This document shows positions 8,204-62,817 of a DNA stretch of 64,000 nt, one piece after another. A program made the translations under genes and the position numbers. Origin of the DNA: Verrucomicrobiia bacterium (GTDB taxonomy: Bacteria; Verrucomicrobiota; Verrucomicrobiia; Chthoniobacterales; UBA6821). Within the stretch, counting starts at the first letter, position 1, and the number at the start of each line of letters is the position of its first letter. The DNA is taken from positions 1,995 to 65,994 of the forward strand of contig JBEIJN010000014.1 of assembly GCA_040380225.1 (NCBI GenBank), read 5' to 3'. The notes beneath the pieces were generated by a model. It saw nothing but the letters and a program-made list of their open reading frames with translations. It searched no databases and was not told the DNA's origin.

Positions 8204-8350
8204 GGGAGGGATGTTGCATCCCCTGCCCCACTTTCGGAAGCCTTAACCCCCAAACGCCCCCCCGAAAGCTGGCTATCTCCACAGAAACGCATTGCCATTC
8301 TGTTCCGGGCATGAAAGGTAAGAGCAGGTTTTCATCTCGATTCCCACCCA

Positions 8351-44058: not shown

Positions 44059-44864
44059 GGGAGATCACGCCCCAGCAAGCCGGCAAGATCGGCATTCAAA
44101 GGCTTATAAAATTCCGCCAGCATCCTCTCCGCTTCACTTGGAAGAGGCTCCGCACCCCCTCCATCCCGTGCGTGGGGCATTTTCTTGACGGGGACAGGCT
44201 CCAACCCAAGATGCCTCCAACTTCTTGCAAGGTTTTCCTGTGGGGATTCCGTCAACTCCTCCAGAAAAAGCACCAACGATTGTTCACGCGGAAAATGACC
44301 CCACCACTCGCGTAGCAAGTCGGCATACATGCCGCAGCGGACGTAGCGGAGCGGATTATTCCACTGTCGCAGAGCTGATCGACAAAGAGCCGTGCCTGAT
44401 GGATCCGACAGCCACCGGACTGCATTCGTCACCGTTTTGGTGAAATCCGAGAGATCGTCACCCGACTTGCGGAACATCCTGTACTCCGACCAAGCCCTTA
44501 CCACCGGTTCCCTGAAAATGAAGATCAGCCTGGCATCCGGCATCACCTCGGCCGCACGGGCGGGCAAATCGGGATGGAACCAGTACTCCATGCTTGCATC
44601 CCCGCAGACCCATGGGGCGAACGGCCTGACAAAAGGGAAGTTCATCCTCAGACGAAGTTCGCTTCCCGGATAACGGATCATGCTGGCCGGTTCCTTGAAC
44701 GGCCCCCTTCGTACTCGCGGATGAAGGAGCAGTGCGTCAAAGAGGGAGGAGGAGCCGCACTTCGGAGCCCCGGGCATTAGGAAGGAAGGTCGCGTCCTGA
44801 GCGGAGCGGTAAGCAGGCGGCATGCCTTCGAGATCTCGGCGTTGATGTCGGGCTTTTTAGGCAT
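44052..44864 (-). CDS. PAPS-dependent sulfotransferase
   Basis: 5'-PSB loop PGAPKCGSSSLFDALLLHP and 3'-PB element FIFREPVVRAWSEY. Start trimmed to ATG 44864, 2 nt after the upstream stop. Confidence 0.75.
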   Translation of the reverse strand: MPKKPDINAEISKACRLLTAPLRTRPSFLMPGAPKCGSSSLFDALLLHPRVRRGPFKEPASMIRYPGSELRLRMNFPFVRPFAPWVCGDASMEYWFHPDLPARAAEVMPDARLIFIFREPVVRAWSEYRMFRKSGDDLSDFTKTVTNAVRWLSDPSGTALCRSALRQWNNPLRYVRCGMYADLLREWWGHFPREQSLVLFLEELTESPQENLARSWRHLGLEPVPVKKMPHARDGGGAEPLPSEAERMLAEFYKPLNADLAGLLGRDLPW

Positions 44865-44866
44865 GG

Positions 44867-46021
44867 TCAGCTTGCTGGAAGGAAGGATCGAATCCGAGAC
44901 GCGATTTTCCTGCCCACGGCATCCCATGTAAACTCTTTCTCCACCATCGTCCTTCCGGCGCTTCCCATGACGCGCGCCCGGTCCTGATCCTGCAAGAGGG
45001 CGACAATGGCAGAGGCAAACTCCTCCGTATTCCTGGGATCAACAAGCCGGCCGGTCACCCCATCCCTCACACGCTCGGCCCCTGCTCCGAAGGGCGTGGT
45101 GATCACCGGCAACCCGTAGGCGGCGGCATCCAGCGCCAGCATACTTGCCCGCTCCACGCGACTCGGGACACTGACAAGGGCTGCCTTGCGAAAGAGCTGG
45201 TCCAACTCCCCGAGCCTCACCCTTCCGAAAACCCTCATCCCTTCCTGAGCACTCCGAGGCTGTGCTCCAACCACCCAGAGTTCCGCGGAGGGTATCTTCT
45301 GCCGGACTCTTTTGAATGCAGCAGCGAGTTCCTCTCCTCCCTTGATCCCCCAATCCGCTCCGACAAATAGAATCACGGGTTCGGGCGTTGAGGCAGACTC
45401 CTCCAGAAGCGGCAGATCCATGTTGATCCCGGTGGAAACTGTCAGCACTCGTTCCTCGGGAATCCCGTAATCCAAGACGACTGACTTTTCGCAGAAACGA
45501 CTCAGGGTGAAGACCGTCGCCGCCTTCGGGTAAAGAGCAGCTTCTAATCTTATCCATTCTGGTGATGCCGGCGCCGGCGATCCCCCGCCCGGTTGGCGTT
45601 TGTGCGCCTCGCGGGTGTGATCCGTATAGATGAAGAATGGGATTCCCGGATGCGAGGCATCAAACATCGACTGCGTCTGGAAAATGAAAGAGACCCGGGA
45701 AGGATCAATATTCCGCAGGATCCACAACGAGATCAGATCCCATGCCTTCGGTTCCTGGAAAACAAAATCCCAAGGGCTGTGCCTTCCCCGGAGGAGCGGC
45801 ACCAACCGCTTCATGGAGGCCTTGCAGCACAGCCACAGTGAGTGTAACGGAAAGGATGACAGAATATCGCGCGCCGCATCCACGACTTCCAGCTCACACT
45901 CAGGAAACCGCTCCCTCAGCACCCTCTCCATCTTCGCGTTCACGTGTGAGAACGATCCGTATTTGACGAAGATGATCCGATTCGGAATTCCACCGCCAAG
46001 AGGAGAGGATGATGAGTTCAT
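44867..46021 (-). CDS. Glycosyltransferase family 4
   Basis: 384 aa. VSVPSRVERASMLALDAAAYGLPVITTPFGAGAERV. Confidence 0.7.
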   Translation of the reverse strand: MNSSSSPLGGGIPNRIIFVKYGSFSHVNAKMERVLRERFPECELEVVDAARDILSSFPLHSLWLCCKASMKRLVPLLRGRHSPWDFVFQEPKAWDLISLWILRNIDPSRVSFIFQTQSMFDASHPGIPFFIYTDHTREAHKRQPGGGSPAPASPEWIRLEAALYPKAATVFTLSRFCEKSVVLDYGIPEERVLTVSTGINMDLPLLEESASTPEPVILFVGADWGIKGGEELAAAFKRVRQKIPSAELWVVGAQPRSAQEGMRVFGRVRLGELDQLFRKAALVSVPSRVERASMLALDAAAYGLPVITTPFGAGAERVRDGVTGRLVDPRNTEEFASAIVALLQDQDRARVMGSAGRTMVEKEFTWDAVGRKIASRIRSFLPAS

Positions 46022-47133
46022 TTTGGGGACAAAACGGCTTTCACCGCGTCAACATGCCGTGGCGCGACAACCTCCGTTGCATAATGTTCCAAAAACACAC
46101 GGCGCGACGCATGCGATGCCTCAGCGCGCCATTCATCACTGCGGGCAGTCTCGAATGCCCCACCCCACTCCTTATAGGACTCACAGATCGTAACGGCCGC
46201 CCCCCCCGTGCTCCGATCCCTCACATCCAGATAGCTGGGTTGGGGGCTTGCAATAGCGGGCAGGCCGCAAGCCATCCCCAGAGTGATCTTCCATTCCGTA
46301 TGAGACTGGTTGTACGGGTTCTCCAGAAACCTCGGCGAGATAACTACCCCAGGTTTTTCGGCATACAGCGAGAGCAGATTCTCGATCGACCTGAACCGAT
46401 GGGTTGTGTGGGGCACTGAAGAAAGAAGAGACTCAAGACTCGCCGCAGCAGTGGCGTCCAGGCGACTCACGGCTGATTTCAAATCGCCCGTCACAAGATG
46501 CAGTCTGATCTTCTTTCCCATCGAGCGCATCGCCTCTCCTGCCGCAAGCAGATCGGACGCCTTGTCAGCCATCCCCGACCACCAGACATGGAGTGCGGAA
46601 TCATCGCGCGGGACGGTAGCCTGCGGCGTGGGGATCATTCTCGCGGGAATTTGGTCCGGAACCCAGAAAACGTTAGGATTCCACGCCGCGCAAATTGCTG
46701 TCAGATGACTGGAGGAGGCAATCACGCCGTCCGTCAGGGATGTCATCCTGATTGCTTTTTCCCTCTGCGCCGAGGTTGGTCTTAAATGCCCGGGGAGCGT
46801 CCCTCCCCCCCCTTCGGTGTAGTAATCGACATTGGCCTCGAAGATGACCTTTGTCCCCTTCTCCTTGAGCCTTTCGGCAAAGTCGGCGCATCCGGCCTCC
46901 ATTGACTTAAGAAATACCACCGCGTCGTAACGACGCCAGGGTTTGAAAAGCTCATAGCGCATCCCGAAACCTGGATCACGGTTCACCACCTCCGCAATCC
47001 AGCCAAAGCGCATGAAATTCATGGGGGAGTGCCGGTCCGGCCACCCCGTCAGGAGGTAATGAGGTTTCATACCTCGCATCACCGCTTTCCATTCAGGAAA
47101 ACGACTATTGATGATGAATCCGATCCGCTTCAC
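46018..47133 (-). CDS. Hypothetical GT-B-like glycosyltransferase
   Basis: Likely GTG start at 47133, overlapping the upstream TGA (GTGA). GT-B-like C-terminal half (KITLGMACGLPAIASP). Weak family call. Confidence 0.45.
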   Translation of the reverse strand: MKRIGFIINSRFPEWKAVMRGMKPHYLLTGWPDRHSPMNFMRFGWIAEVVNRDPGFGMRYELFKPWRRYDAVVFLKSMEAGCADFAERLKEKGTKVIFEANVDYYTEGGGGTLPGHLRPTSAQREKAIRMTSLTDGVIASSSHLTAICAAWNPNVFWVPDQIPARMIPTPQATVPRDDSALHVWWSGMADKASDLLAAGEAMRSMGKKIRLHLVTGDLKSAVSRLDATAAASLESLLSSVPHTTHRFRSIENLLSLYAEKPGVVISPRFLENPYNQSHTEWKITLGMACGLPAIASPQPSYLDVRDRSTGGAAVTICESYKEWGGAFETARSDEWRAEASHASRRVFLEHYATEVVAPRHVDAVKAVLSPK

Positions 47134-47933
47134 CTGGCGGGAGACCTCGGAAAGAAGGATCGGATCTCCTTGGTAACCAAGGGGCCCCTGCCGTAACGCT
47201 GCTCCTTGGAGTCCCTCGGTGCTCCGCGTAAGACAAAGGCAATCCAAGCGCGTATGAATCGCAGGACCGGCCATGTGTGACGATCCATGATGCAGTCTCG
47301 ATTCCGGGGATTTTCCGCGTCACGCGACGACCTCCTGACAAAGCATGGATGGAGGCAGCGGAAATCGGCTTCTTCCCAGGAAACCTGCTCATGAAGGTCC
47401 CGGCGAAGACCTTCGTGGTATCCCTCACGGAAAACCACCGTACCCCCATGCATCCGCTCCCGGCAGGGACCATTCCATGCCTTGATGGCATTGAAGTTGT
47501 AGAGTTTCGTCATGCTGCGGCACGGGGGAGCCAGATGACCCTGCGCCCAAGCTTCCCCGACATTGATCCTGCGGACATTGAGGACGTTTCCAAAAATGCA
47601 CCAGTCCTTGTCAAACTCACCCGACTCGAGGCGTCCCCTCATCCGCGAAAGGCCTTCCGGATCGTAAATCTCGTCGCCATCGAATCCGAAGATCCAGGTA
47701 TGGGTTCCGGCATACCCCTCGATCAGATCATGGCTAACAGCGGGCGTCATGACGCTGTGAATTTCGAGCTTGTCACCGAATTCGGTTTTCAACTCCTCAA
47801 GAATTTCAAGAGTGCGATCCGATGACGGCCCCTCCACCGCAATCACCTTGTCGCAGAAGTCGATGGCGTTTCTAAGAACCCTTTCGACATACAGATCCTC
47901 ATCCTTCACCAGAAGAATTCCAATGATTTTCAT
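47130..47933 (-). CDS. GT-A fold glycosyltransferase (GT2-like)
   Basis: MKIIGILLVKDEDLYVERVLRNAIDFCDKVIAVEGPSSDRT, FDGDEIY (DxD-like). Start trimmed from 48023. Confidence 0.55.
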   Translation of the reverse strand: MKIIGILLVKDEDLYVERVLRNAIDFCDKVIAVEGPSSDRTLEILEELKTEFGDKLEIHSVMTPAVSHDLIEGYAGTHTWIFGFDGDEIYDPEGLSRMRGRLESGEFDKDWCIFGNVLNVRRINVGEAWAQGHLAPPCRSMTKLYNFNAIKAWNGPCRERMHGGTVVFREGYHEGLRRDLHEQVSWEEADFRCLHPCFVRRSSRDAENPRNRDCIMDRHTWPVLRFIRAWIAFVLRGAPRDSKEQRYGRGPLVTKEIRSFFPRSPAR

Positions 47934-47982: not shown

Positions 47983-49140
47983 TCACCGACGTTTGCGAAT
48001 CCAATCCCGGCAAGGCATCTCAAAATAGCGGTAGGAAAGATCCGATAATCCGAGAACCACTGCTAGGAGAACCGCAAGATTGATGAGTCCATGCCCGAGT
48101 AGACTTGCGGAGAAATGCTCCTTCCCTATCCGAATCAGGAATACAATCCACCCCATGACAAGAATATGCCACAGATAGATTGAATAGGATCTTTCACCCA
48201 ACCATTGGAAAACCCTGTGCTTGAGGATCCCTGTAATAATGCCGCTGTCATAGGCACTGAAGAGAATGAGTGCCGGGAACGCATAGAGTAGGTACTGGTC
48301 GGGGAGCCCCCCCTGTCTGGTCAGCACTAACACCATCACCACGCCGATCAACACGGCGTCGATGAACGGAAAACGCAGGATGAATGCAGGAATCCTGCGA
48401 AACACGGAACAGAGAAAGAACCCTGCCGCAAAACCCAGGATGCCTTTTGCCAAAAATCGTGATTGCCACTCGAAATCACCCACATGCAGCGGCGGAATCT
48501 TGTAATTCGCCATCCACCATGTGGCGGCCAAGGCAAGGACCGCTGACAGAAACCCGATGCCGCGCCTATCCGCGCACCGTGTGACCAAGAGAACGAGAAG
48601 AGGGAAAACAAAGAGGTAACAGAAGAATTCGACGCTGATCGACCATGCGGGTGAATTCAATGTCTCTCTCCAACCGAAAAGCACACCCGATACCATCGTG
48701 AAGTTGGTGAGTAGGGTGATCGCTGGATTGCCTGTCAGAACCTCCGGTTTATGCCCCCAGATCGCATAAAATGAGAGAGGGGTTAGAAAGGGAAGCAAGG
48801 TGAGATAATACAGCGGCATGATACGACCAATGCGTGCACGGAGATATGAAGACCAAACGATGGGGCGATCCCGGCCGACATAAACCCAGTTGAGGATGAA
48901 CCCGCTCAGCATGAAAAACAGAAGGACAGCCTGATAACCCCAGTTGAAGAGCGAGAACCAACGGACATCCAGCCCCCAGTCGGTCAGGATGCCGTTTTTT
49001 GCCTGACCTCCCACATGCCCCAGAAAGACGCTCATGGCAGCGATTCCACGGAGCGCCGTGTGGGACTGGATTTCCGACCCGGGCCTCTTGGGCGCGGGTG
49101 CCCGCAATCCTTGGAAAAAACCAGCCATGCCGCCGCTCAC
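47983..49140 (-). CDS. Membrane O-acyltransferase, acyltransferase-3 (AT3) family
   Basis: 385 aa, about 10 TM. ALRGIAAMSVFLGH, FFMLSGF, AWSISVEFFCY, SYSIYLWH. Confidence 0.75.
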   Translation of the reverse strand: MSGGMAGFFQGLRAPAPKRPGSEIQSHTALRGIAAMSVFLGHVGGQAKNGILTDWGLDVRWFSLFNWGYQAVLLFFMLSGFILNWVYVGRDRPIVWSSYLRARIGRIMPLYYLTLLPFLTPLSFYAIWGHKPEVLTGNPAITLLTNFTMVSGVLFGWRETLNSPAWSISVEFFCYLFVFPLLVLLVTRCADRRGIGFLSAVLALAATWWMANYKIPPLHVGDFEWQSRFLAKGILGFAAGFFLCSVFRRIPAFILRFPFIDAVLIGVVMVLVLTRQGGLPDQYLLYAFPALILFSAYDSGIITGILKHRVFQWLGERSYSIYLWHILVMGWIVFLIRIGKEHFSASLLGHGLINLAVLLAVVLGLSDLSYRYFEMPCRDWIRKRR

Positions 49141-50168: not shown

Positions 50169-52097
50169 TTACGGCATGACGGTTCGGTCGAGATAAGTGA
50201 CGTGATCTTTCACATACCCTTTGCGGAGATGGGCCTTGTCGAACCGGATGGGACCCTGCTCGTTCTCCTGGATGCACCAACCGTCGATGCACAGAAAATC
50301 AAGTGGATCGATCACCTCGGCACCGTTTGCCAGTGCAACACGTTTCATGTCCTTCCTTGAAATGAAGTCGCCGATTCCATTCAGGAACTCCTCCCGGCTC
50401 ACGGGAACGGGCCTGCTGATGCTGATGCCGGTGAAGGTCCTGGTGATGAAGTGACGTGGATCGAAGACATCGCCATTCGGGACGCTCAGCACCAGCACCA
50501 CCTCCTTGCCCTGCTCGTGTAGCGATCGAATAAGGGCTCCGAGGGCAGCGATAGCCTCGTTCTCACCTATCGGGGTCGCCAGAGAGTGACCGTTGATCTC
50601 AAACTTGCTTCCTTTCTTAAAATAAGGATCCCAGTTGGCAGCAATCACCACCCGTCGGATCAATGGGTTCTCCTGAAGCACGCCCATAAGACGGCCCATT
50701 GCAATCGCGGTGGTTTTTATTGGATCGATCACCCCGGGAATGGGTGGGCGACCGCCGGATCCCAGCATCAATACTCCTGTGTTTTTATCTTTGAGCCCGT
50801 TCACCACGATCCGGATGCGCGGCGCGTAATGCCACATGTTGCTGTCGCCAAGGTAAAGGGTTCGGATCTCCTTCCCACCAACCCTGCAGAGGTAGACATT
50901 CCCTTGAGTATCAGTCTCCCAACCATCGAAAAACCCTTGGTTTTTGGTGGCAAAAGCCACCTGCTCAATCCTTGCGGTCGTCGTCGGATAGATCCCCTTT
51001 CTCCAGATGATCCAACCGAAGATACCGGCAATGAGGAAGGATGCCACGAGCAACCAAAAAACAGCACGGGATCTCGTGTGGCGGAGCGGTTTCTCGATGA
51101 GATAGTAGGTGAAAATCGTCAGTACGAGTGCGACTCCCAAAGCCATCCAGATAACACCGGGCGGAGGATTGGTACCTTTGACAATATGCAGGAATGACAA
51201 GGCAGGCCAATGGAAGAGATAGAGCGGATAGCTGATCAGGCCGATCCAGACTATCGCCGGATAGGAAAGGAAGAAACGGTTGAACCAAGCTCCTTTTCCT
51301 CCCTCCATCACCAGAACCGTCCCGCATACTGGCAACAAGGCCCTCCATCCCGGATAGAAGGCATCCTCGTGAATGAAGGCAAAACCTGCCGCGAGCAGAA
51401 GTACTCCAACAAAGGATAAAAGATGCCTGTGTACCGGCACATCCTCCTCGTGCCCCCTTTCAAAGTGCCACCATGCCAGAAGCGAACCTCCGAGAAATTC
51501 CCATGACCTCCATGGGGTGAGGAAAAAAGCGGCGGAACCGCTTATGCGGGATATCAGGAGATTTCCGATCAACGAGGCCAGAAACAGCCCCCCCAGAACT
51601 CGGGCCATCGGCCAGCGTTTTCTGGCAACAAGGAGAAGCAGCGGGGGGAAGAAAATGTAGAACTGTTCTTCCACAGCCAGCGACCAGAGATGCAGGAGTG
51701 GCTTCGTGTCAGCCGCAGTATCGAAGTAACCGCACTCCTGCCAGAAGACGATGTTCTGGATAAAGACAGCTCCAGCCGCGACATGCTTCCCAAGTTGTTC
51801 GTATTCCCCCCGGAGCAGCACGAAGAACCCATAGGCAAGACAGAGTCCTAGTACTGCCACCAGCGAGGGAAAGAGGCGGCGAACCCGGCGCGCATAAAAC
51901 TCGGAAAAGCTGAAATCACCCGCCTTTACACCCTTGTAAAGGATCCCGCTGATCAGATAGCCGGAAATCACGAAGAAAATGTCCACACCGGTGAATCCTC
52001 CGGGCAACGCCTTGGGAAAGGCATGATAGACAATCACGCCGAGCACGGCGACAGCCCTCAGGCCATCGATGTCGGGGCGGTATCGCAGAGAGGTCAT
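50169..52097 (-). CDS. AT3-SGNH fused O-acyltransferase (OafA/YrhL-like), paralog 1
   Basis: 642 aa. YRPDIDGLRAVAVLGVIVYHAF, VDIFFVISGYLIS, LWSLAVEEQFYIFFP, ISYPLYLFHWP. C-terminal extracytoplasmic domain with LGDSNMWHY (SGNH block I-like). Confidence 0.8.
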   Translation of the reverse strand: MTSLRYRPDIDGLRAVAVLGVIVYHAFPKALPGGFTGVDIFFVISGYLISGILYKGVKAGDFSFSEFYARRVRRLFPSLVAVLGLCLAYGFFVLLRGEYEQLGKHVAAGAVFIQNIVFWQECGYFDTAADTKPLLHLWSLAVEEQFYIFFPPLLLLVARKRWPMARVLGGLFLASLIGNLLISRISGSAAFFLTPWRSWEFLGGSLLAWWHFERGHEEDVPVHRHLLSFVGVLLLAAGFAFIHEDAFYPGWRALLPVCGTVLVMEGGKGAWFNRFFLSYPAIVWIGLISYPLYLFHWPALSFLHIVKGTNPPPGVIWMALGVALVLTIFTYYLIEKPLRHTRSRAVFWLLVASFLIAGIFGWIIWRKGIYPTTTARIEQVAFATKNQGFFDGWETDTQGNVYLCRVGGKEIRTLYLGDSNMWHYAPRIRIVVNGLKDKNTGVLMLGSGGRPPIPGVIDPIKTTAIAMGRLMGVLQENPLIRRVVIAANWDPYFKKGSKFEINGHSLATPIGENEAIAALGALIRSLHEQGKEVVLVLSVPNGDVFDPRHFITRTFTGISISRPVPVSREEFLNGIGDFISRKDMKRVALANGAEVIDPLDFLCIDGWCIQENEQGPIRFDKAHLRKGYVKDHVTYLDRTVMP

Positions 52098-52108: not shown

Positions 52109-54046
52109 TTAGGGAGCAACGGTAAAATCGAGGTACATCAACTTATCCCTGACATATCCCGGACGGAGGTGCGTAGCATCATAGCGGATGGGACCATCAG
52201 TATCTTCGGCGATACACATGCCGTCCACGCAAAGGTAATCCATAGGGTCAATTACCTCCGCTCCGTTTCTTCGTGCCACCGCAGCGATCTCGGACAAGAA
52301 ATCCCCCCTATCTTCAAGAAACTCCTTCACAGTCAGTCGACCCGCCGAACAGCTGCGAACCCCAGTGAAATCCCTTGCGAAAAAACTTTTTGGATCGAGC
52401 AGATCACCCGACGGCACGCTTAGCACAAGCGTGACTTGTTTCCCGGACAGCGCAAAATTGTTTATTTCGCGCCCCAAATCCTCAAGGGCAGTTTTTCTTC
52501 CATTCACGCCGCTCATGGGTTGCCCTTGATGCAAGTATTTTGAGTGATCCATGAAATAGGCATGCCAGCGAGCTGCTATCACCACACGGTCAATTCTTGG
52601 ATCAGAGTTCAGTACCTCATGGATCTTTGGCATCAACGCCACACACCTTGGTTTTGCGGGATGGGTTACGCGGGGAATCGGGGGAACCCCGACAGATGTC
52701 AGAAAAAGAGCCCCCCTTGCCGGATTGGCAGACTGTTTAGTCAAGAGCCTCAATATTCGCGGTGCATACTGCTGGGCATTACTGTCGCCGATATAGAGTG
52801 TCTGCGGCCCTTCCCCTCCAGCATGGTTGAAGCTAAAGAGTTGAGCATCACCCAAGCACTGCAATCCCGCCAGCGAATCATGATCGCGCGTTGCCGTCAC
52901 ACACTTCTGAACATCGCCTGAAACCGATATTGCTGGGATCCAACCCCTGAAAATCGCCCAACCAGCAAATCCCAAGAGAAGGTAGATCAGGATGAGAGTG
53001 GGCAACACCCGGGCGGACATGCAGTACCTGATCTTTTTCTCAACGAGATAGTAAGTGATGAGCGTCAGCGCGAAGGCAACTCCCAAGGCCATCCAGATAA
53101 GTTCCGGCTCAGGATTCGCACCTTTGACGATGTGAAGGAACGACAATGCCGGCCAGTGGAAGAGGTAGAGGGGATAGCTAATTAGCCCCACATACACCAT
53201 TGCAGGATGGGAAAGGATCCTTCTGTTCACCCAAGCACCGCCGCCCCCCTCGATCACCAGCAGCGTACCCGCTACTGGCAGCAGGGCTCGCCATCCGGGA
53301 TAGGGTTGCGCCTTCGTCAGCAAGATCATGCCTAGCAGCATCAGGATGGCCCCCGCCCAGGAAAGGATCTCCCTGTGCTTTGGCTTCTCCGCATGATGAG
53401 CCCGATCATAGTGCCACCATGCAAGGAGACTTCCTGCCAGGAACTCCCATGCCCGATAGGGCGTCAGGAAGAAGTCTGAGGCTGCACTCTGATACGACAT
53501 CACCACGTTGCCAATGAAGGAACCGATGAGAAGCACGCCCATGATGGCTGCAGGCGGCCACTTCTTTTTCCAGATCAGCAGTAGGAGCGGCGGAAAGAAG
53601 ATATAGAACTGTTCCTCCACCGCAAGCGACCAGAGGTGGAGTAGCGGCTTGAGAATGGCCGCCGTGTCAAAATAACCGCTCTCCTGCCAGAAAACCATAT
53701 TCTGGATAAAGAGAGTTCCTGCCGCCACATGCTTTCCCAGCTTCTCATACTCGTCCGGCAGCAGAATGACCCACCCATAGCCCAGGCAGAGCAGCAGAAC
53801 GGTGATGAGCGAAGGAAAGAGCCTCCTGATACGCCGTGCGTAGAACTCCTTGAAGCTGAAGGGCCCTTCCCTATGACCCTTGTAGAGAATCCCGCTGATC
53901 AGATATCCGCTAATCACGAAGAAGATATCCACCCCGCTGAACCCTCCCGGCAATAACTTCGGGAACGCATGGAAAATGATGACGCCGAGAACCGCCACAG
54001 CCCTTAGGCCATCAATGTCGGGACGGTATCTCAGTGAAACACTCAT
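52109..54046 (-). CDS. AT3-SGNH fused O-acyltransferase, paralog 2 (tandem duplicate)
   Basis: 645 aa. N-terminal AT3 half is highly similar to paralog 1 (same motifs). The C-terminal half (IGDSNAQQY) is clearly more diverged. Confidence 0.8.
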   Translation of the reverse strand: MSVSLRYRPDIDGLRAVAVLGVIIFHAFPKLLPGGFSGVDIFFVISGYLISGILYKGHREGPFSFKEFYARRIRRLFPSLITVLLLCLGYGWVILLPDEYEKLGKHVAAGTLFIQNMVFWQESGYFDTAAILKPLLHLWSLAVEEQFYIFFPPLLLLIWKKKWPPAAIMGVLLIGSFIGNVVMSYQSAASDFFLTPYRAWEFLAGSLLAWWHYDRAHHAEKPKHREILSWAGAILMLLGMILLTKAQPYPGWRALLPVAGTLLVIEGGGGAWVNRRILSHPAMVYVGLISYPLYLFHWPALSFLHIVKGANPEPELIWMALGVAFALTLITYYLVEKKIRYCMSARVLPTLILIYLLLGFAGWAIFRGWIPAISVSGDVQKCVTATRDHDSLAGLQCLGDAQLFSFNHAGGEGPQTLYIGDSNAQQYAPRILRLLTKQSANPARGALFLTSVGVPPIPRVTHPAKPRCVALMPKIHEVLNSDPRIDRVVIAARWHAYFMDHSKYLHQGQPMSGVNGRKTALEDLGREINNFALSGKQVTLVLSVPSGDLLDPKSFFARDFTGVRSCSAGRLTVKEFLEDRGDFLSEIAAVARRNGAEVIDPMDYLCVDGMCIAEDTDGPIRYDATHLRPGYVRDKLMYLDFTVAP

Positions 54047-55122
54047 TCAGATGAAGATGCCCGCTCAATGACGCCGGCCAATCGCTCGGCAAAACCTTGG
54101 GCCGTCCACTTTGCCCCAAGAAGCGCATTCCTCGCGGCAAGCACACTGGATGTCGACATGGTTCCCTGAATCGCCGCCGCAAACTCTTCCGCATTGTCAG
54201 GGCTCACCAGTGAAACTTCTTTCCCGTCGCGAATGACATCGCTCCCCCACCATCCCGAGGTTTTGGTGATGACCACGGGGGCTTCGCACATCATCGCCTG
54301 CATGGCCACACTCTGCCCGGACGGCTGAAGGCTTTCCCTAAGTGGAACCAACACGCACGCGGCCATCTGGTAAAGATCCCGGAGCCCTTCATCGCTTAGC
54401 GCGTTTTCCTTCCAGTCACCACGACGCCAGAGGACATTCTTCGGCAAATTGTCAGGGGCATCCAGACGTGTGACCACGGTGAAGGGAATCGCCGGAAGGA
54501 TCCTTGCCGTCTCCACAAGCGTGGCGTAGTCACGACGACCATCGTTCCCCACGGCAAGAACTCCACTGCGGTTTCCGTCGATAGACGGAGGGATCCAGAA
54601 AGTCTCATCCACTCCAAACCAACCCGATTGGATTTCATCAGCCTCGGGCTTGAAACGCTTCCTGATCTCAGCCTCCTCTGAATCTGCGAAGAGCACGGCC
54701 TGCATCCGGCCCAGCAGTCGGGCGGTGATGATCCTGCGTACCTCTGATCCTATAGGATAATTGACAGCTCCACAGAGAATTCCCGCGAGAGGCTTCTTGA
54801 ACAGGCCCAGTTCTTTCCAAAGAGCCAGACCGAAGGAAATCTCGGTCGCTGTTGCAACCACCACATCGTAGCCCTTCAACTTCGGAAGCAGACGACGCGT
54901 CCGGGCAATCCAATCGGCCGAAGTTCTGGGAGGAACAAGTATGCCCAAGAGCCCCCCTGCGATCAGGCCGGTCAGCGGATCTGCCGGTTCGGCATCCACC
55001 TCGAGGCAATCCACAGTCCATCCGTGGCGAGAGGATAACTCCCTGGCCCCATAAAAGAAATCGGACGGCCCGTCGGTTCCCCGAAGATGCCGTCCGCCAG
55101 CGTAGACAAAGGCAACCTTCAT
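54043..55122 (-). CDS. GT-B fold glycosyltransferase (GT4-like)
   Basis: Start trimmed to MKVAFVYAGG (ATGA overlap with the upstream stop at 55119-55122). LQPSGQSVAMQAMMCEAPVV. Confidence 0.55.
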   Translation of the reverse strand: MKVAFVYAGGRHLRGTDGPSDFFYGARELSSRHGWTVDCLEVDAEPADPLTGLIAGGLLGILVPPRTSADWIARTRRLLPKLKGYDVVVATATEISFGLALWKELGLFKKPLAGILCGAVNYPIGSEVRRIITARLLGRMQAVLFADSEEAEIRKRFKPEADEIQSGWFGVDETFWIPPSIDGNRSGVLAVGNDGRRDYATLVETARILPAIPFTVVTRLDAPDNLPKNVLWRRGDWKENALSDEGLRDLYQMAACVLVPLRESLQPSGQSVAMQAMMCEAPVVITKTSGWWGSDVIRDGKEVSLVSPDNAEEFAAAIQGTMSTSSVLAARNALLGAKWTAQGFAERLAGVIERASSSE

Positions 55123-55955
55123 TTCATTCGGAAGAGCCTCCACCTGATTCCCTCCATAACTTTCCCAATCACCCCCGCCATCCAGGCATCCCATCCGATC
55201 CAGTATCCGAGGCATCGACCGGGCTTGCTCAGAATCCCGAAATGCCTCGGAGAAGCCTCCCTGAGCCTCGGTAGGAATACCCGGGGACTTCCGCTCTTGT
55301 TCAATGAAGCCGACAACGCCTCGTAATCTGGATGCCGCCCGTGGAGGATTTTTACCGACCCCCTTCCCGCGAACGCAGGCATGATGAATCGGAAGTTGTA
55401 TTCGGGAGGCAGAGTCGCGAAGGAAACATCACTCTGCCACAGCGCATCCCTCAGCGACGGTTGGTCATCGATCACGCCGGTGCTCGTGAGTCTTTCCTGA
55501 TAAAGCTTCTCCCAGAGTGAAAAAAGCGAGCGAGTGCGGTCATTCAGATGATAGGCAATCACCCCGCTGTTGCATTCGGGAAAGGTCGGCGGAACCGACG
55601 AGGTTGCGGTAAATCTCATCGGGGCGTGGGCCATGGCGACATCATGCCGATCCAAGATGGCAAACATCTCGGGAACCGGCTCGCAGAGCCATGTATCGGT
55701 ATCGAGAAACACAGTTCTTTCAAATGGCGTCGAAAGAAGCGGCCCGATCTTATCGGAGAAATTAAACTGCGGGTTTGCTATCGCGAGATGATGATCAAAC
55801 AGATCTTTCGGTGGCGATAGATCGGATGCGATCGCTATCGGAACCCCAGGCATCACCGAGCGGATACGCACGGCAGATCGGCATGACTCATCAAGGAATC
55901 TGCGCCCTGTAGCGATAAAGTAAAATCCGGTGGATGATTCCTTCATACTATCCAT
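55119..55955 (-). CDS. GT-A fold, GT8-like nucleotide-sugar transferase
   Basis: Start trimmed to MDSMKESS (TAATG overlap with the upstream stop). FLDTDTW (DxD), CNSGVIAY, DDQPSL. Confidence 0.5.
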   Translation of the reverse strand: MDSMKESSTGFYFIATGRRFLDESCRSAVRIRSVMPGVPIAIASDLSPPKDLFDHHLAIANPQFNFSDKIGPLLSTPFERTVFLDTDTWLCEPVPEMFAILDRHDVAMAHAPMRFTATSSVPPTFPECNSGVIAYHLNDRTRSLFSLWEKLYQERLTSTGVIDDQPSLRDALWQSDVSFATLPPEYNFRFIMPAFAGRGSVKILHGRHPDYEALSASLNKSGSPRVFLPRLREASPRHFGILSKPGRCLGYWIGWDAWMAGVIGKVMEGIRWRLFRMK

Positions 55956-57202
55956 TACCGAGTATTTACACCTCGTCGGAAGTGCCTGTGATAAATCTCC
56001 TTGGCCACGCAGGAAGCCATCCTCGAGACAAACTTGCCGGAAGAGCAACCCTTGGCGACGATTCGGTTCGGGGAGAAAGCTGCGAGAAGAAGCCCAGCCC
56101 CCAACCCTCCGGAAGTTTCATAACCATATTGTGGGAGAAGCTTACCAAAAAGCCCCTCGATGAGGTCTTTTTGCTTATCGCTCAATTCCGATTTCCAGCG
56201 TCCCGACATCTTGGGGCTAACCGTTCCGGAAGCCATCCCATCGGAATCCATTCTCGAAGTATTGGACCCAGCAGAGCGCCCGTAAACCGAGGGAGTGAGA
56301 AGAACCTTGTCAAATCCTATGCCCAGGAACTCAGCGATCCGCTTCATCTCGGCGGAGGTGTTGGCAACGAGATCCTCGTAACGCACGATATGATGAGAAG
56401 CGCTTAGGATTCTGTCGTTTGAAAGTCCAAACCTCATCGAGCTATGGATCGCCTCCATTTCATTGATCAGGGAGAAAGAGCGAAACTTCTTGTGCTGCTT
56501 GCGGGACTGCGCGGCAATGATCGCACCAGGATGACGCACGATGTGCAGGAATTTAGCCTCAGGGAACACTGATGCCAGGCGAAGGGCCTCCTCGGCATTA
56601 CCCGTCGATTTCTCAACCCATCCTTTTTTCACTTGGCCCGAAGGCGCCATCTCCTCCTCGATACTGCAGTATGCCCATGCCATGGCCGAGAGCAGCGACT
56701 CGGAAGAGTCCAAGCCTCTCTTCGTGGTGGCCAGTTCCAGCATCGCGGCGATCCGCGGATAGGCAGCGTGTTCCCTACCCGCAATCCATGTCGGCTCCTC
56801 CCCCGCGATGGGCATCACCAGGGAATGAATCATCGTCTCCAGAAGGGAGGATCGACGGTGTTCCCGCGGGCATTTCATCACAAGATCCATAAATCGGATC
56901 CCATGACCATCGGTTGGTAGCGTGTAAAGCTCAGGATGGCCGTCGAGCAGATTTCTCAAAAGAGTCGTCCCCGACTTGTGGGAGCCGCCGATGAATATCG
57001 GTCTCTGCACGACAGACTCGGGGACAAGCGTGGGATGCAGCCCGGCCGTTGACTGCTCCGCCCGCGCTCTCAGGCTGCTCACCTGATTTCGGAAACGTTC
57101 CGCGGAAGGGTGAGGGGAGACAAGCAGGAATCTCTCGCCGGCGGAGCGGGCTTCATCCAGCGATGCGTCTATATTCTTAAGTGATTGTTCCAGTTCCATC
57201 AT
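55955..57202 (-). CDS. PAPS-dependent sulfotransferase with an N-terminal ~75-aa extension
   Basis: 5'-PSB loop FIGGSHKSGTTLLRNLLDGHP and 3'-PB element FLHIVRHPGAIIAAQS. Confidence 0.75.
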   Translation of the reverse strand: MMELEQSLKNIDASLDEARSAGERFLLVSPHPSAERFRNQVSSLRARAEQSTAGLHPTLVPESVVQRPIFIGGSHKSGTTLLRNLLDGHPELYTLPTDGHGIRFMDLVMKCPREHRRSSLLETMIHSLVMPIAGEEPTWIAGREHAAYPRIAAMLELATTKRGLDSSESLLSAMAWAYCSIEEEMAPSGQVKKGWVEKSTGNAEEALRLASVFPEAKFLHIVRHPGAIIAAQSRKQHKKFRSFSLINEMEAIHSSMRFGLSNDRILSASHHIVRYEDLVANTSAEMKRIAEFLGIGFDKVLLTPSVYGRSAGSNTSRMDSDGMASGTVSPKMSGRWKSELSDKQKDLIEGLFGKLLPQYGYETSGGLGAGLLLAAFSPNRIVAKGCSSGKFVSRMASCVAKEIYHRHFRRGVNTR

Positions 57203-57224: not shown

Positions 57225-58460
57225 TCAGTCCAGCACGATCCGTGCAGGCATGCCCGCAATCATCGGATCACATCCTCCGTGACGCATTGCGCGTGATATA
57301 TTGCCATCTCCATCGCAGATCCAGTTTTCGGCGGCTCCGGCTTTGGACAAGAGACCGATGTTTTTGAATATCTGCTCCTCGCTGGTGTCATGGGATTTCA
57401 TATGGACGCAGATTTCGGGAGCTCCCGAGTATGCGGGCAGGCGACATAGAGTGGAACGCCGCGCTTCCGAGATCCAAGCCACATCGGCGACGCGAACACC
57501 ATCCCCGGTCTCGATCGGCACATCGACCAGCACATGCCCGCCCTGCAGCGACCGGGCCAGAAGCGAGCTGATAGCACCGACCATTTCGGCACGTCTCGAT
57601 CCCGTACCTGCTGAAAAATGCGATGCGCCGTGAAGATGAAGCCCCTCCGTGTAGAAGTCCGCCGCCTCCAGCGCGGGCGCATCGCAGACCACCCTTCCTT
57701 GCTGCAGGACGATGGCCCGGTTGCAGAGTTGCTTCACACTCTCGGCGGCATGACTCACGAAGAGAATCGTCACCCCTGAGTTCTTCGTCGCCTCGATCTT
57801 CTCAAGGCACTTCTCCTGGAACGCCGCATCCCCCACGGCCAGCACTTCGTCGAGGATCAGGATCTCCGGATCCAGATGAGCCGCCACGGAGAATGCCAAC
57901 CGGACTCGCATGCCGCTAGAGTAACGCTTGACCGGCGTGTCCATGAACTTCTCGATCTCGGCAAAGGAAAGGATCTGGTCATAGCGATCATCGATTTCCT
58001 TCTTTTTTAGCCCAAGGATACTTCCGTTGAGATAGACATTCTCCCTGCCGGTGAGCTCCTGGTGAAATCCGGTTCCCACCTCCAGGAGACTTGCCACGCG
58101 CCCCTTCATGTATGCTTTTCCCTCGGTGGGAGCAGTTATCCTGGAGAGAAGCTTCAACAGCGTGGACTTGCCGGAGCCATTGCGCCCCATGATTCCCACG
58201 ATGTCACCTTGATGGACTTCAAAGCTTATATTCTTCAGAGCCCAGAAGTCATAGGCCTCCGGCAAGCTGTCCGTATTCTGTTCATGGACACGGCTATTGG
58301 GGTCTGTTTTTCCCAGCTTCCTTGAGACATAGCTCTCGATCTGATCGACCAGCATCTTCCGGGTGATCACCCCCAGGCGGTATTTTTTGGAAAGGCCCTC
58401 GGCACGAATCACGCACTCCTTAAGTGCATTATTCGATATTGTTAATTGGTCATTATGCAT
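57225..58460 (-). CDS. wzt: Polysaccharide ABC exporter ATP-binding protein (Wzt/TagH-like) with an atypical C-terminal domain
   Basis: Walker A GRNGSGKST, signature YSSGMRVRLAFS, Walker B ILILDEVLAVGD. The C-terminal ~135 aa resemble the Uma2/DUF820 fold (see findings). Confidence 0.85.
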   Translation of the reverse strand: MHNDQLTISNNALKECVIRAEGLSKKYRLGVITRKMLVDQIESYVSRKLGKTDPNSRVHEQNTDSLPEAYDFWALKNISFEVHQGDIVGIMGRNGSGKSTLLKLLSRITAPTEGKAYMKGRVASLLEVGTGFHQELTGRENVYLNGSILGLKKKEIDDRYDQILSFAEIEKFMDTPVKRYSSGMRVRLAFSVAAHLDPEILILDEVLAVGDAAFQEKCLEKIEATKNSGVTILFVSHAAESVKQLCNRAIVLQQGRVVCDAPALEAADFYTEGLHLHGASHFSAGTGSRRAEMVGAISSLLARSLQGGHVLVDVPIETGDGVRVADVAWISEARRSTLCRLPAYSGAPEICVHMKSHDTSEEQIFKNIGLLSKAGAAENWICDGDGNISRAMRHGGCDPMIAGMPARIVLD

Positions 58461-58564: not shown

Positions 58565-59422
58565 CTACGCCGTATCCACGCTCGTCTGCTCGACTTTGTT
58601 GAAGACGATCAACCCCAGAAAAAGGATCCCGATGCTCAGTGTTGCGCTGATCACGACCTGCCCGAAGGTAACGGTCCCCTGCCCCATGAATGCGCATCGA
58701 AATGCCTCGATCACAAAGACAATCGGGTTCCAATCATACATCCATCGGTAGCTCTCAGGAACCACCTTCAGTGGATAGACCACACAGCTTGCGTACATCC
58801 AGAGCTGCATAAAGAAACCAAGCAGCACCTGGAGATCTCGAAACCTGCTTGTCACTCCAGAAATCAGGCAACCCACCCCCAGACCGAGTGCAGCCATCTG
58901 GATGATGAGTACCGGTAATACGATGATCCTCCAGTCAAGGCGGATAGGCGCCCCGTGGAAGTAAAACCAGAGATAGAACGCAAAGAAGAGGACTAATCCC
59001 ATGGCCAGTCCCACGAGATTGGTGATCAGTTGGGAGATCGGCACGGCCAATCGCGGAAAGTAGACTTTATCGAACATTCCTTGGTTCGAGGTGAAGGTGT
59101 TCGCCGTCTTGGTCACACACTCAGAGAAATACCTCCAGCAGACCGTTCCGGAGAGATAGAAGAGAATCGGCGGAATTTCCCCAGTGGAGATCTTGGCAAC
59201 CCTTGTGAAGACCAGCACGAACATAAGGCTCTGCAGCAGCGGCTGCAGCACATACCAGAAGGATCCCAGAACCGTCTGCTTATACTGGGAGACGAAGTCC
59301 CTGTGGGCCATCAGCCCGATCATCTCCCGGTAGTCCCAGAGTTCCTTGAAGGGGATGTACAGGAGATTACGCCGGGGAGTGATGACCGTAGTCCAGGATT
59401 CGGAAGTTGAAGATGAGGACAT
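58565..59422 (-). CDS. wzm: ABC-2 type polysaccharide exporter permease (Wzm/KpsM/TagG-like)
   Basis: 285 aa, 6 TM. ELWDYREMIGLMAHRDFVSQYKQTVLGSFWYVLQPLL, NPIVFVIEAFR. Confidence 0.8.
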   Translation of the reverse strand: MSSSSTSESWTTVITPRRNLLYIPFKELWDYREMIGLMAHRDFVSQYKQTVLGSFWYVLQPLLQSLMFVLVFTRVAKISTGEIPPILFYLSGTVCWRYFSECVTKTANTFTSNQGMFDKVYFPRLAVPISQLITNLVGLAMGLVLFFAFYLWFYFHGAPIRLDWRIIVLPVLIIQMAALGLGVGCLISGVTSRFRDLQVLLGFFMQLWMYASCVVYPLKVVPESYRWMYDWNPIVFVIEAFRCAFMGQGTVTFGQVVISATLSIGILFLGLIVFNKVEQTSVDTA

Positions 59423-59536: not shown

Positions 59537-59971
59537 TCAAATCACGCAAAGATTTTTCTCTTCCGCATCGTTCACTGCAGAAATGGGAATTTTTGTATCA
59601 AATGTCACGAGTCGCCCCTGGCGAGACACTGCCAATCCTAGCAGGTAAAGATCCGTTAAATATCGTGAACTATGAATGCGCTCGCATGCAAAGATGGCTT
59701 TGTTCCGAAGGGAAATGGAATCACCCCAAAATTCATGATCCGTCGAATCGACGAACTGGCGCATCTGGCCGATCAGATCACCGGGCAAGAACTGCATTGT
59801 CCGGCTGTATCCGGGATTGGACATGATGCGTACAGCTCCGTTTTCCGTGAGCGGACAACTGGCCCATCCATCCCCTCCATGCATTGCCCACCAACCATGC
59901 GCCCTCTCGTGAAATGAATGATCCGGATCAAAGAGCGCAATGATCACATTGATATCCAACAATGCCCGCAT
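59537..59971 (-). CDS. vapC: PIN-domain toxin VapC
   Basis: 144 aa. MRALLDINVIIALFDPDH, CPLTENG, YLTDLYLLGLAVSRQGRLVTFD. Confidence 0.8.
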   Translation of the reverse strand: MRALLDINVIIALFDPDHSFHERAHGWWAMHGGDGWASCPLTENGAVRIMSNPGYSRTMQFLPGDLIGQMRQFVDSTDHEFWGDSISLRNKAIFACERIHSSRYLTDLYLLGLAVSRQGRLVTFDTKIPISAVNDAEEKNLCVI

Positions 59972-59975
59972 CGCT

Positions 59976-60215
59976 TCAGATTCCCTCCTGACCCATCAAC
60001 TTTCGGGCATGCTCCAGAGTCACAACCTCACCGCGCGACTGCAGCAATGGAACCCCCCCGCGAGTCACCGGCGATCTCTTTTTTTCGTGCGCGGGAATCG
60101 TCAACCCTCGTCGAGCTAAGACGGAAAGAATGTGGCCGGCGGTACTCCCTTCTCGCTGCGCAAGTTCTTTCGCGGCCTGCAAAACATCTTCCTCTATATC
60201 CAACGTGGTTCTCAT
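59976..60215 (-). CDS. vapB: VapB-type antitoxin
   Basis: 79 aa. MRTTLDIEEDVLQAAKELAQREG is the typical MRTTLDIDDxL antitoxin N-terminus. It lies 4 nt upstream of vapC. Confidence 0.7.
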   Translation of the reverse strand: MRTTLDIEEDVLQAAKELAQREGSTAGHILSVLARRGLTIPAHEKKRSPVTRGGVPLLQSRGEVVTLEHARKLMGQEGI

Positions 60216-61674: not shown

Positions 61675-62817
61675 TTAATTTCCCAACTCCCCTCCATCCA
61701 AAAATCGTGTGCCCTTTTCCAAGTCCATCACAATTGGCTCGGCATCCTTGTAACGCTGACAAAAGCGCTCCAGACCCCCCATGCGTTTCACTCTGCCTGA
61801 TTTCACTTCGATCGCCACAATGCCACGTTGGGTTTTTACAACGAAATCCACCTCGGCGCCACCCTCTCGCCAATACATGACCTCATCATAGCGCCGACAG
61901 AGTTCGGCACCCACCCCGCACTCAAAAAGCCGACCCTTCCATTCGATATCTTGATCGAGCGGAAAAGAATCCCTCTGGGCATTCACCAGCGCCGTATTGA
62001 GCGGGACGATTTTGGGGCTCGATCCCCGCTTTTTTATCTCCGATCCGCTATATTTTTGTAATACCTTGATCAGAAAAGCCCCCTCGAACAGTTCGAGATA
62101 ATGCTTGATTGTAGTTACATTCCCTGACTCCTGCAATTGCCCCAGCAGCTTTTGAAGGGAAATCTCCATTGCAGGATAGGCGAGGCACAACTGAAACGCC
62201 TGCCGGAAAAGAGCCGGCTTGTTCACGACGGCCAGCGACAACAAATCCCGCAGCAGAACCGGCTCAATAATCGAATGGTTGATAAAATCTCTCCACCGGG
62301 AGAAATCCCCAGTGAGTTCCGCCGCCGCCGGATACCCGCCGAATTTTAGAAACTCCTTCAAGCCCCATCCAAAAGCCTCGCGACACTCCGGCAAGCTCCA
62401 GTGTCCTGCGTGAATGACCTCGTAACGACCCGCTAGGCTCTCAGCCATTCCCTTCTGCATCAGCAGGCTGGCCGAGCCTAGCAAAACCACCTTCAAACTA
62501 CGAGATTCGCGATCCTCATCGAAAAGCCTCTTCACTCGCTCACTCCAGCCCGGCACTTTCTGAATCTCATCGATCACCAGCAAAGCCCCCTCACCCATGC
62601 CCCGCGAGATTTTCCAGTTCAACTCGATCCAATCTGCAGTAGGTGGTGCCACCTCATCAGCCGAGGCCAAATGCACAGGCCCCTTCCATCTCTGGGCAAT
62701 TTGTCGGAGCCCCGTGGTCTTTCCCACCTGGTGCGGCCCAGTGACGACCTGAATAAAGTTCAGCCTCTCCTGCAAACGAACTTCTAATTTTTTGCTAAAA
62801 TCACGAAAAAATTGCAT
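61675..62817 (-). CDS. AAA ATPase with a DUF4143-type C-terminal domain
   Basis: 380 aa. P-loop VTGPHQVGKTT, Walker B LLVIDEIQ, C-terminal nuclease-fold-like GAEVDFVVKTQRGIVAIEVKSGR. Confidence 0.7.
   Translation of the reverse strand: MQFFRDFSKKLEVRLQERLNFIQVVTGPHQVGKTTGLRQIAQRWKGPVHLASADEVAPPTADWIELNWKISRGMGEGALLVIDEIQKVPGWSERVKRLFDEDRESRSLKVVLLGSASLLMQKGMAESLAGRYEVIHAGHWSLPECREAFGWGLKEFLKFGGYPAAAELTGDFSRWRDFINHSIIEPVLLRDLLSLAVVNKPALFRQAFQLCLAYPAMEISLQKLLGQLQESGNVTTIKHYLELFEGAFLIKVLQKYSGSEIKKRGSSPKIVPLNTALVNAQRDSFPLDQDIEWKGRLFECGVGAELCRRYDEVMYWREGGAEVDFVVKTQRGIVAIEVKSGRVKRMGGLERFCQRYKDAEPIVMDLEKGTRFLDGGELGN

Follow-up and report, generated by a model that had tools for sequence, protein, structure and literature searches.

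The window analysed here is a stretch of 64,000 nucleotides from a Verrucomicrobiia bacterium (contig JBEIJN010000014.1 of assembly GCA_040380225.1), and the gene in question is a wzt of its glycan locus, an open reading frame (ORF) at 57225..58460 on the reverse strand that encodes 411 residues followed by a stop codon. In its product a nucleotide-binding domain (NBD) of the Wzt type (residues 16-273, 57642..58415, reverse strand) is fused to a Uma2/DUF820-like domain of the PD-(D/E)xK fold with a degenerate catalytic site (residues 287-411, 57228..57602, reverse strand). An earlier note on this DNA had claimed, from the letters and translations, that the last ~135 residues after a complete NBD parallel the layout of the Uma2 family. 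The peptide that it quoted (...GSRRAEMVGAISSLLARSLQGGHVLVDVPIETGDGVRVADVAWISEARRS...GAPEICVHMKSHDTSEEQIFKNIGLLSKAGAAENWICDGDGNIS...) is present as written in the translation of 57225..58460, and the segment that it considered, 57225-57635, corresponds to residues 276-411 plus the stop codon of wzt. As described below, it is almost certain that the last ~125 residues of this Wzt are a genuine Uma2/DUF820-type PD-(D/E)xK-fold domain.

The ORF is, by family membership, a Wzt/TagH-type ATP-binding cassette (ABC) ATPase, with glycan export as its predicted role. Pfam ABC_tran was found at residues 75-206 (E 7.7e-24), and the NBD motifs are invariant columns of the family alignment, namely Walker A G92-R-N-G-S-G-K-S-T100, the signature Y180-S-S-G-M184, Walker B I202-L-D-E205 and the H-loop residue H237. 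The best NCBIfam models were TagH and galactan Wzt/RfbE (E 2.6e-63 and 3.1e-54), which are NBD models only, and since all NCBIfam scores fell below the equivalog cut-offs, the protein is not an orthologue of any of the named ones. Among PDB sequences the best match was Wzt of Aquifex aeolicus (E 2.5e-64), and the phmmer alignment to the full-length Aquifex protein covered the NBD only, stopping at the C-terminal hinge helix without entering the carbohydrate-binding domain (CBD). When a model of the full-length protein was searched with Foldseek, the best matches were the NBDs of TagH and Wzt, with about half of the query covered and a query template modelling score (TMq) of at most 0.50. Up to 331 columns could be aligned to full-length chains, but with a root mean square deviation of 8.8-13 Å and TMq no higher than 0.50.

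The NBD ends in a C-terminal hinge helix (residues 263-273) that is followed by a linker (274-286) with a conserved L-H-L-H motif, the two together occupying 57603..57674 on the reverse strand as judged from the AlphaFold2 model, conservation and the Aquifex alignment. The model has a helix at 263-273 and a low-confidence linker, with a predicted local distance difference test score (pLDDT) below 50 for residues 276-285. In the family alignment of 121 sequences Tyr270 is invariant (121/121), and Leu274, His275 and Leu276 are found in 108, 100 and 116 sequences, respectively. In the alignment to Aquifex Wzt, residues F269-Y270 fall opposite the "YY" of its hinge helix, the Tyr233 of which contacts the O antigen (PMC9445017).

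For the tail, Pfam was silent: the last 151 residues matched no family even at E≤10, Wzt_C (PF14524) included, and Wzt_C was likewise unmatched in all 17 family tails that were scanned with Pfam. In a phmmer search of 5.8 billion sequences, however, the last 141 residues retrieved, besides 16 close relatives, nine proteins of 140-186 residues with Pfam Uma2 (PF05685) at E values of 5e-14 to 1.7e-10. Since such values were reached against a database of this size, chance similarity to Uma2 can be dismissed. Three of the nine proteins were re-scanned and matched Pfam Uma2 at E 1e-16 to 3e-15. When a profile of the 17 family tails was compared by hhalign with one Uma2 protein, the probability was 99.5% and the E value 2.4e-23. 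Direct matches to Pfam Uma2 were obtained for seven of the 17 family tails, all of them weak (best E 1.4e-4), with the window's own tail below the threshold. The best PDB sequence for the tail was 9y1l (E 0.003), followed by 6okh.

Structure prediction gave the same answer. The AlphaFold2 model of the tail has a mean pLDDT of 84 and the element order H-E-E-H-E-H-E-E, which is an alpha/beta topology and not the beta-sandwich of a Wzt_C-type domain. In a Foldseek search of the PDB with this model, all seven matches at E≤0.001 were the Uma2/DUF820 structures 9y1l, 1wdj (TT1808), 3ot2 and 6okh, with E values of 3.3e-8 to 7.4e-6 and TM scores of 0.60-0.66; other PD-(D/E)xK nucleases came below them, and no Wzt CBD structure was among the 50 best matches. 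The input alignment of this tail-only model contained Uma2 proteins. A second, full-length model made from fused-family sequences only had the same element order for residues 287-392, with the elements of the NBD extending through residue 273.

The motif parallels drawn in the earlier note recur residue for residue in the phmmer alignments to 9y1l and 6okh, in a MAFFT alignment with the nine PF05685 proteins and in the hhalign comparison, and its claim of a Uma2 layout is supported. The tail and Uma2 have in common the motifs DG-x-R-x-x-D-V-x-W-x-S, A-P-E/D-I-C-V and G-A-x-E-x-W. The N-terminal E-L-x-N-G hairpin of Uma2 is harder to place: MAFFT sets E272...L276 opposite to it, and AlphaFold2 gives residues 263-273 to the NBD helix and leaves 276-285 disordered.

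The fusion is not peculiar to the window. A full-length search found at least 120 clusters of 338-423 residues with 57-92% identity, nearly all with more than 90% coverage. Few of these homologues are named; those that are come from metagenome-assembled genomes of Verrucomicrobia, Terrimicrobiaceae and Chthoniobacterales, with one labelled Proteobacteria, and public annotation gives the fused proteins no more than the name ABC transporter ATP-binding protein. When one genome of each GTDB species was scanned by pattern, 80 loci were obtained, in nine of which the match was the C-terminus of a Walker-A-containing ORF. All nine species are Verrucomicrobiota, and since the scan used two peptide patterns, nine is a lower bound. 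In each of the nine loci wzm lies upstream of wzt, and each is a polysaccharide locus. The NBD-Uma2 fusion marks out a clade of Verrucomicrobiota Wzm/Wzt glycan exporters. It is old and has become fixed, and the Uma2 unit joined to the NBD is apparently truncated or degenerate at its N-terminus. The earlier note had offered such a truncated-Uma2 fusion and a novel recognition module as alternatives. The two are not exclusive, the fusion being borne out and the tail evolving in the manner of a specificity module, a role that it would be predicted to have.

The remaining 71 of the 80 loci contain free-standing Uma2 genes of ~150-190 codons, mostly in Verrucomicrobiota with some in Burkholderiales and Planctomycetota. 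The earlier note had proposed to check whether orthologues carry the extension or instead end after the NBD, with Uma2 as a separate gene downstream. Orthologues do carry it, and none of these 71 loci has the split arrangement. Two of the 71 loci, both from Planctomycetota, have a Wzm/Wzt-type transporter gene: in L071 the free-standing Uma2 gene is 0.8 kb upstream of a wzm homologue (6925-7209 and 8009-8824), and in L082 it is ~6 kb from a wzm-wzt pair. These Uma2 genes may represent the unfused counterpart or a coincidence. Two others, L046 and L081, have a distant ABC-ATPase match only, at 27% identity.

An exhaustive profile search of 1.84 billion cluster representatives gave 521 matches. 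Among the best 150 of these, P0094 was the sole full-length NBD-plus-Uma2 representative and the other fused-family matches were short fragments (P0150, for example, having a partial ABC_tran). At 50% identity the family collapses on account of its tight NBD. One match, P0148 (5692 residues, 22 matched stretches), was rejected as spurious, being a low-complexity, alanine-rich repeat protein. Other fusions were encountered among the matches. P0200 (699 residues), a second kind of Uma2 fusion to glycan-assembly machinery, begins with a Uma2 domain (Pfam E 4.7e-9) that is acidic at the equivalent of position 353 and continues with a weak GT1/GT4 glycosyltransferase match; P0235, P0290 and P0215 are DcrB+Uma2, DUF2188+Uma2 and weak Replic_Relax+Uma2 fusions, respectively.

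To examine the nuclease site, 119 fused tails (from homologues of 376-423 residues) were aligned with 131 free-standing relatives. Position 353 is Glu in 123 of the 131 free-standing proteins and in the fused family is His (71), Ser (18), Asn (12) or another residue, His in the window; the fused residues are H, S, N, G, C, I or Q, and an acidic residue occurs in one of 120 (P0118). Position 367, Lys in 119/131 free-standing proteins, is Thr, Asp, Asn or Ser in fused tails (Asn in the window), position 290, His in 98/131, is Arg, Val or Lys (Arg in the window), and position 359, Asn in 119/131, is Arg, Lys or Thr (Thr in the window). Changes are also seen at position 313, where Glu (101/131) is replaced by Asp (71) or Asn (40), the window having Asp, and at position 356, where Ser (122/131) is found in 60 fused tails along with Gly in 29 and Asp in 10. 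Other positions have been kept: 326 is Asp in 128/131 free-standing proteins and Asp (105) or Glu (9) in fused ones, with Asp in the window; 349 is Glu or Asp in 123/131 and in 118/119, with Glu in the window; 378 is Glu in 123/131 and in 119/119; and 380 is Trp in 129/131 and in 119/119. Conservation is high in the first half of the domain and in the G-A-x-E-N-W motif, and the fused family has gained conserved basic residues at 289, 359, 373 and 392. Lys355 occurs in ~20 of the 119 fused tails, the window itself having H353-M-K355 where classical enzymes have (D/E)-x-K.

The catalytic changes listed in the earlier note (PDL-VEV becoming PEI-VHM) are thus right in part. Glu353 has become His, but PE for PD is no alteration since the nearest standalone Uma2 relatives have Glu in 113 and Asp in 10 of 131, and to the list must be added Lys367 to Asn, His290 to Arg and Asn359 to Thr. 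Because a Glu and a Lys that are near-invariant in the free-standing relatives have been lost, nuclease activity is unlikely, and judging from these substitutions the tail is most likely no enzyme. The fused family falls into two subclades with coupled residues, Asp313/Glu349/His353/Asn379 in one and Asn313/Asp349/Ser-Asn353/Ala-Ser379 in the other. A metal site formed by His275, His277, His309 and His353 was considered and rejected as a family-wide explanation, since these residues co-occur in one subclade only.

Although degenerate as a nuclease, the tail is not decaying. The ratio of nonsynonymous to synonymous substitution rates (dN/dS) is 0.13-0.24 for the tail and 0.04-0.07 for the NBD (0.138 and 0.042 in the least saturated pair, L003/L004), and the tail is under purifying selection. 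It nevertheless diverges much faster than its surroundings. On average, pairs of sequences share 77% identity in the NBD and 47% in the tail, and in L003/L004 the Uma2-like domain is 59-62% identical as against 89-92% for Wzm and 89% for GT4_390.

The domain has a hypervariable, recombining second half, residues 353-411 (57228..57404, reverse strand), which comprises the end of beta3, helix 361-373, strands 378-382 and 387-392 and the C-terminal end. P0027 is 100% identical to the window in the NBD, 65% over residues 287-352 and 41% over 353-411; the corresponding values are 97%, 92% and 34% for P0028, and 89%, 95% and 95% for P0026. At the DNA level, blastn similarity between the window and L003, L004, L083, L086 and L090 ends within a few codons of codon 353, at the A-P-E-I-C-V-H junction. 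It picks up again in the downstream genes for L003, L004, L086 and L090 but not L083, and similarity to L088 ends at codon ~283. The pattern is mosaic and not gradual. The second half of the domain, or the whole of it, is exchanged together with the downstream genes, something that the earlier note did not foresee, and the exchange is modular, involving adjacent modification genes.

The gene directly downstream of wzt, within the variable block, encodes a sulfotransferase of 415 residues (55955..57202, reverse strand; Pfam Sulfotransfer_3 E 6.3e-27). Both L088 and L086 have kept an orphan 3' end of a window-type wzt next to the orthologue of this sulfotransferase, on its upstream side and behind the current end of wzt and an extra sulfotransferase of 259-261 residues. 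The remnants read ISRARRHGGYNRMIAGMPSRIVLD in L088 (79% identity over 24 residues, E 2e-9) and GCVLMIAEVPARIALD in L086. The simplest reading of these sequences is that in two independent events a block was inserted into a window-like ancestor, each time bringing a new tail, whole or half, and a small sulfotransferase. Orthologues of the large sulfotransferase follow wzt, directly or past the inserted small one, in the window, L083, L085, L086 and L088, and sulfotransferase genes abut wzt with gaps of 2-3 nt in L083 and L086. The large sulfotransferase is absent from L003-L008, L020 and L090-L092, the tails of which are of other types, and L093 has a distant sulfotransferase two genes downstream. 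In many family members wzt is followed instead by a glycosyltransferase-like gene, an unassigned gene or an insertion sequence (IS) element. A universal sulfate-cap model was considered and dropped, since tblastn found the adjacent sulfotransferase to be absent in all nine GTDB fused loci, and for this reason we adopted the narrower observation of a cassette.

The closest parallel is the extended Wzt with a CBD, as in E. coli O9a, Raoultella terrigena and the WzmWzt of Aquifex aeolicus (Wzt_C, PF14524). Extended Wzt proteins are the standard example of ABC export in which the polymer is checked ahead of transport. Like the window protein, they pair their Wzt-type NBD with Wzm, have after the C-terminal hinge helix a linker and an accessory domain of ~125-150 residues that diverges much faster than the NBD, and retain an aromatic hinge-helix residue (Tyr270 here, Tyr233 in Aquifex). 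The difference lies in the domain itself, since the window tail has a restriction-endonuclease-like alpha/beta fold without sequence or profile similarity to Wzt_C, whereas the CBD dimerises as a jelly-roll beta-sandwich in which the C-terminal strands are swapped. To Uma2/DUF820/TT1808 proteins (PF05685; 1wdj, 3ot2, 6okh, 9y1l) the tail is linked by its core fold, secondary-structure order and three motifs, and its closest relatives are short (141-190 residues) standalone proteins that are also mostly from Verrucomicrobiota. Unlike those free-standing proteins the window copy is fused to an ABC ATPase, has the N-terminal E-L-x-N-G-x-I-x-x-S-P hairpin apparently missing or degenerate, has replaced Glu353, Lys367, His290 and Asn359, and falls below the Pfam threshold. 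Nuclease folds that were selected after loss of their catalytic residues and reused for binding or as a scaffold are known from other inactive PD-(D/E)xK homologues, such as RecC, although these serve nucleic-acid metabolism and not glycan export. RecC is listed as an inactive homologue of RecB, and Uma2 just as a "predicted endonuclease", in PMC3424549.

We consider it somewhat more probable than not that the tail, as a module for specificity or recognition and without catalysis, takes the place of the CBD. This reading is favoured because the tail holds the position of the CBD, diverges as a determinant of specificity would and is exchanged along with modification genes. In extended Wzt proteins the CBD after the hinge helix binds the chemical cap that terminates the chain, is needed for export, acts in trans and modulates ATPase activity (PMC9445017). 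By analogy, the Uma2-like domain would hang below the NBD in the cytoplasm on its flexible linker, possibly as a dimer, and would recognise a feature of the finished lipid-linked glycan, for example an anionic or terminal modification such as sulfate; binding of this ligand would then license or stimulate export as it does with the CBD, and so gate transport. In PD-(D/E)xK enzymes the elements equivalent to the variable stretch flank the active-site cleft. Placed by its secondary structure, the variable stretch of the tail (the loop after strand 3, helix 361-373, the C-terminal strands and the end) would likewise flank the old cleft. A more specific proposal, which we put forward tentatively as possible though doubtful, is that the decayed nuclease cleft now recognises an anionic group (a sulfate or phosphate ester) that caps the completed glycan. 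Glycan export by ABC transporters would then have a second means of cap recognition, one not based on a lectin, and its specificity would be retuned in nature when the second half of the domain and the sulfotransferase that makes the mark are swapped as one cassette.

Several observations weigh against recognition of this kind. The sulfotransferase link is seen in five loci and lacking in ~10, and the physical proximity of the next gene to the 3' end of wzt could by itself explain their co-transfer. The tails of sulfotransferase-linked loci are not clearly of one type, the window being 46% identical to P0048 and 34% to P0028 over residues 353-411, against 34-39% to loci without the sulfotransferase. 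In addition, Asp326, Glu/Asp349 and Glu378 of the old site have been kept, such that residual catalysis is still conceivable. An active nuclease or phosphodiesterase, acting through a non-canonical His-containing site on nucleic acid or on a phosphodiester-linked polymer, would account for this retention (D105/E9, 118/119 and 119/119, respectively), as it would for the co-occurrence of Asp313, Glu349, His353 and Asn379 in the window's subclade and the H353-M-K355 of the window. We nevertheless regard it as very improbable, since position 353 is acidic in one of 120 proteins, Lys367 is lost throughout, Lys355 is limited to ~20 of the 119 tails, and no substrate is evident for such an enzyme when tethered to an exporter ATPase.

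Among the non-enzymatic explanations, the tail might be a general structural or regulatory appendage that clamps the NBD dimer or senses a small cytoplasmic molecule and has no part in glycan recognition. The C-terminal domains of MalK, MetN and ModC are of this clamp or sensor type, the linker-plus-domain layout is similar to that of regulatory NBD extensions, and MetNI and MalK are among the lower structural matches (Foldseek) of the Wzt NBD. Two chains are present in the Uma2 crystal entries, and the conservation of the first half and of the G-A-x-E-N-W motif would also suit such a function. A hypervariable second half that is swapped with downstream modification genes is however unexpected of a generic clamp or sensor, as is a domain that diverges far more than the genes flanking it (L003/L004), and we consider an appendage of this type unlikely. 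Slightly less likely still is that the tail is a docking site that recruits a cognate modifying or terminating enzyme such as a sulfotransferase to the transporter, the glycan itself not being read. The joint gain of a new tail and a small sulfotransferase in what appear to be two independent events would be explained by docking, and so would the position of the sulfotransferase genes 2-3 nt from wzt in L083 and L086, but with so many members having some other gene or an IS element after wzt the partner family is not conserved. Finally, the idea that wzt and a separate Uma2 gene were joined through a frameshift, an overlooked stop or chimeric assembly, a possibility also contained in the earlier note, is refuted and its probability is practically nil. 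Several "hypothetical proteins" of 120 residues in the databases resembled free-standing copies at first sight; these turned out to be fragments at contig edges, as in P0012, where the frame is open to contig base 1 and reads ...SRRGEMVGAIS, and the uninterrupted layout is found in at least 119 clusters and nine species genomes, with no frameshift or stop dividing the gene in two.

To our knowledge, every extended Wzt described so far uses the jelly-roll carbohydrate-binding fold. A full-text search found no link in the literature between Wzt and an endonuclease-like domain, and neither the four papers found to mention the Uma2 family as well as ABC transporters nor the three that mention Wzt as well as Verrucomicrobia describe this architecture in their titles and abstracts. 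The envelope glycans of Verrucomicrobiota appear to be little studied. The present clade has a different fold in the Wzt accessory slot, which would make this position a general docking point for specificity modules and no one-off. The large Uma2/DUF820 family, which is without an assigned function, gains a concrete non-nuclease setting, and ~120 entries named "ABC transporter ATP-binding protein" carry an unannotated domain. The sharp A-P-E-I-C-V-H codon junction suggests ready-made chimeras for work on the coupling of export and glycan modification in Verrucomicrobiota.

Turning to the remainder of the locus, the permease partner wzm (58565..59422, reverse strand) encodes an ABC-2 type protein of 285 residues (Pfam ABC2_membrane E 4.8e-20) and is separated from wzt by a spacer of 104 nt. 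In the ~20 kb round wzt there are ~11 glycosyltransferase genes (GT2 and GT4), three AT3-family acyltransferase genes, a hexapeptide-repeat transferase gene and two sulfotransferase genes. Two of the acyltransferases are AT3-SGNH paralogues of 642 and 645 residues encoded in tandem (50169..52097 and 52109..54046, reverse strand), the third AT3 gene is at 47983..49140 and the second sulfotransferase gene at 44052..44927. By their predicted products, the AT3 genes and the two sulfotransferases imply a heavily O-acylated, sulfated glycan. A protein of 418 residues that is encoded between glycosyltransferase genes (46018..47274, reverse strand) had no Pfam, NCBIfam or PDB-sequence family match and is 83% identical to its L003 counterpart.

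The product of a conserved neighbour gene (55119..56048, reverse strand), 43-83% identical in L004-L008, likewise had no Pfam, NCBIfam or PDB-sequence match; it may be a GT-A glycosyltransferase, as its DxD-like motif "FLDTDTW" would suggest. From its listed TTG start this gene overlaps the sulfotransferase gene by 94 nt. In L004 the orthologue begins at a site that corresponds to an internal Met of the window gene (MKESSTGFYFIATG, ~55946), and such a start removes the overlap.

Between a GT2 gene and wzm there are a VapBC-like pair, consisting of a PIN protein of 144 residues and an upstream partner of 79 residues (59537..60215, reverse strand), and a DUF4143/AAA_14 ATPase gene (61675..62817, reverse strand). 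PIN, HEPN/MNT and DUF4143 genes are found upstream of wzm in L083 and L090 as well, and the region looks like a landing site for mobile modules. The space between wzm and wzt is also occupied in some loci: a small gene for a 23S_rRNA_IVP four-helix bundle (PF05635) is present there in L083 (5597-5881), L085 (1789-2184) and L091 (5590-5955), together with IS elements in L091.

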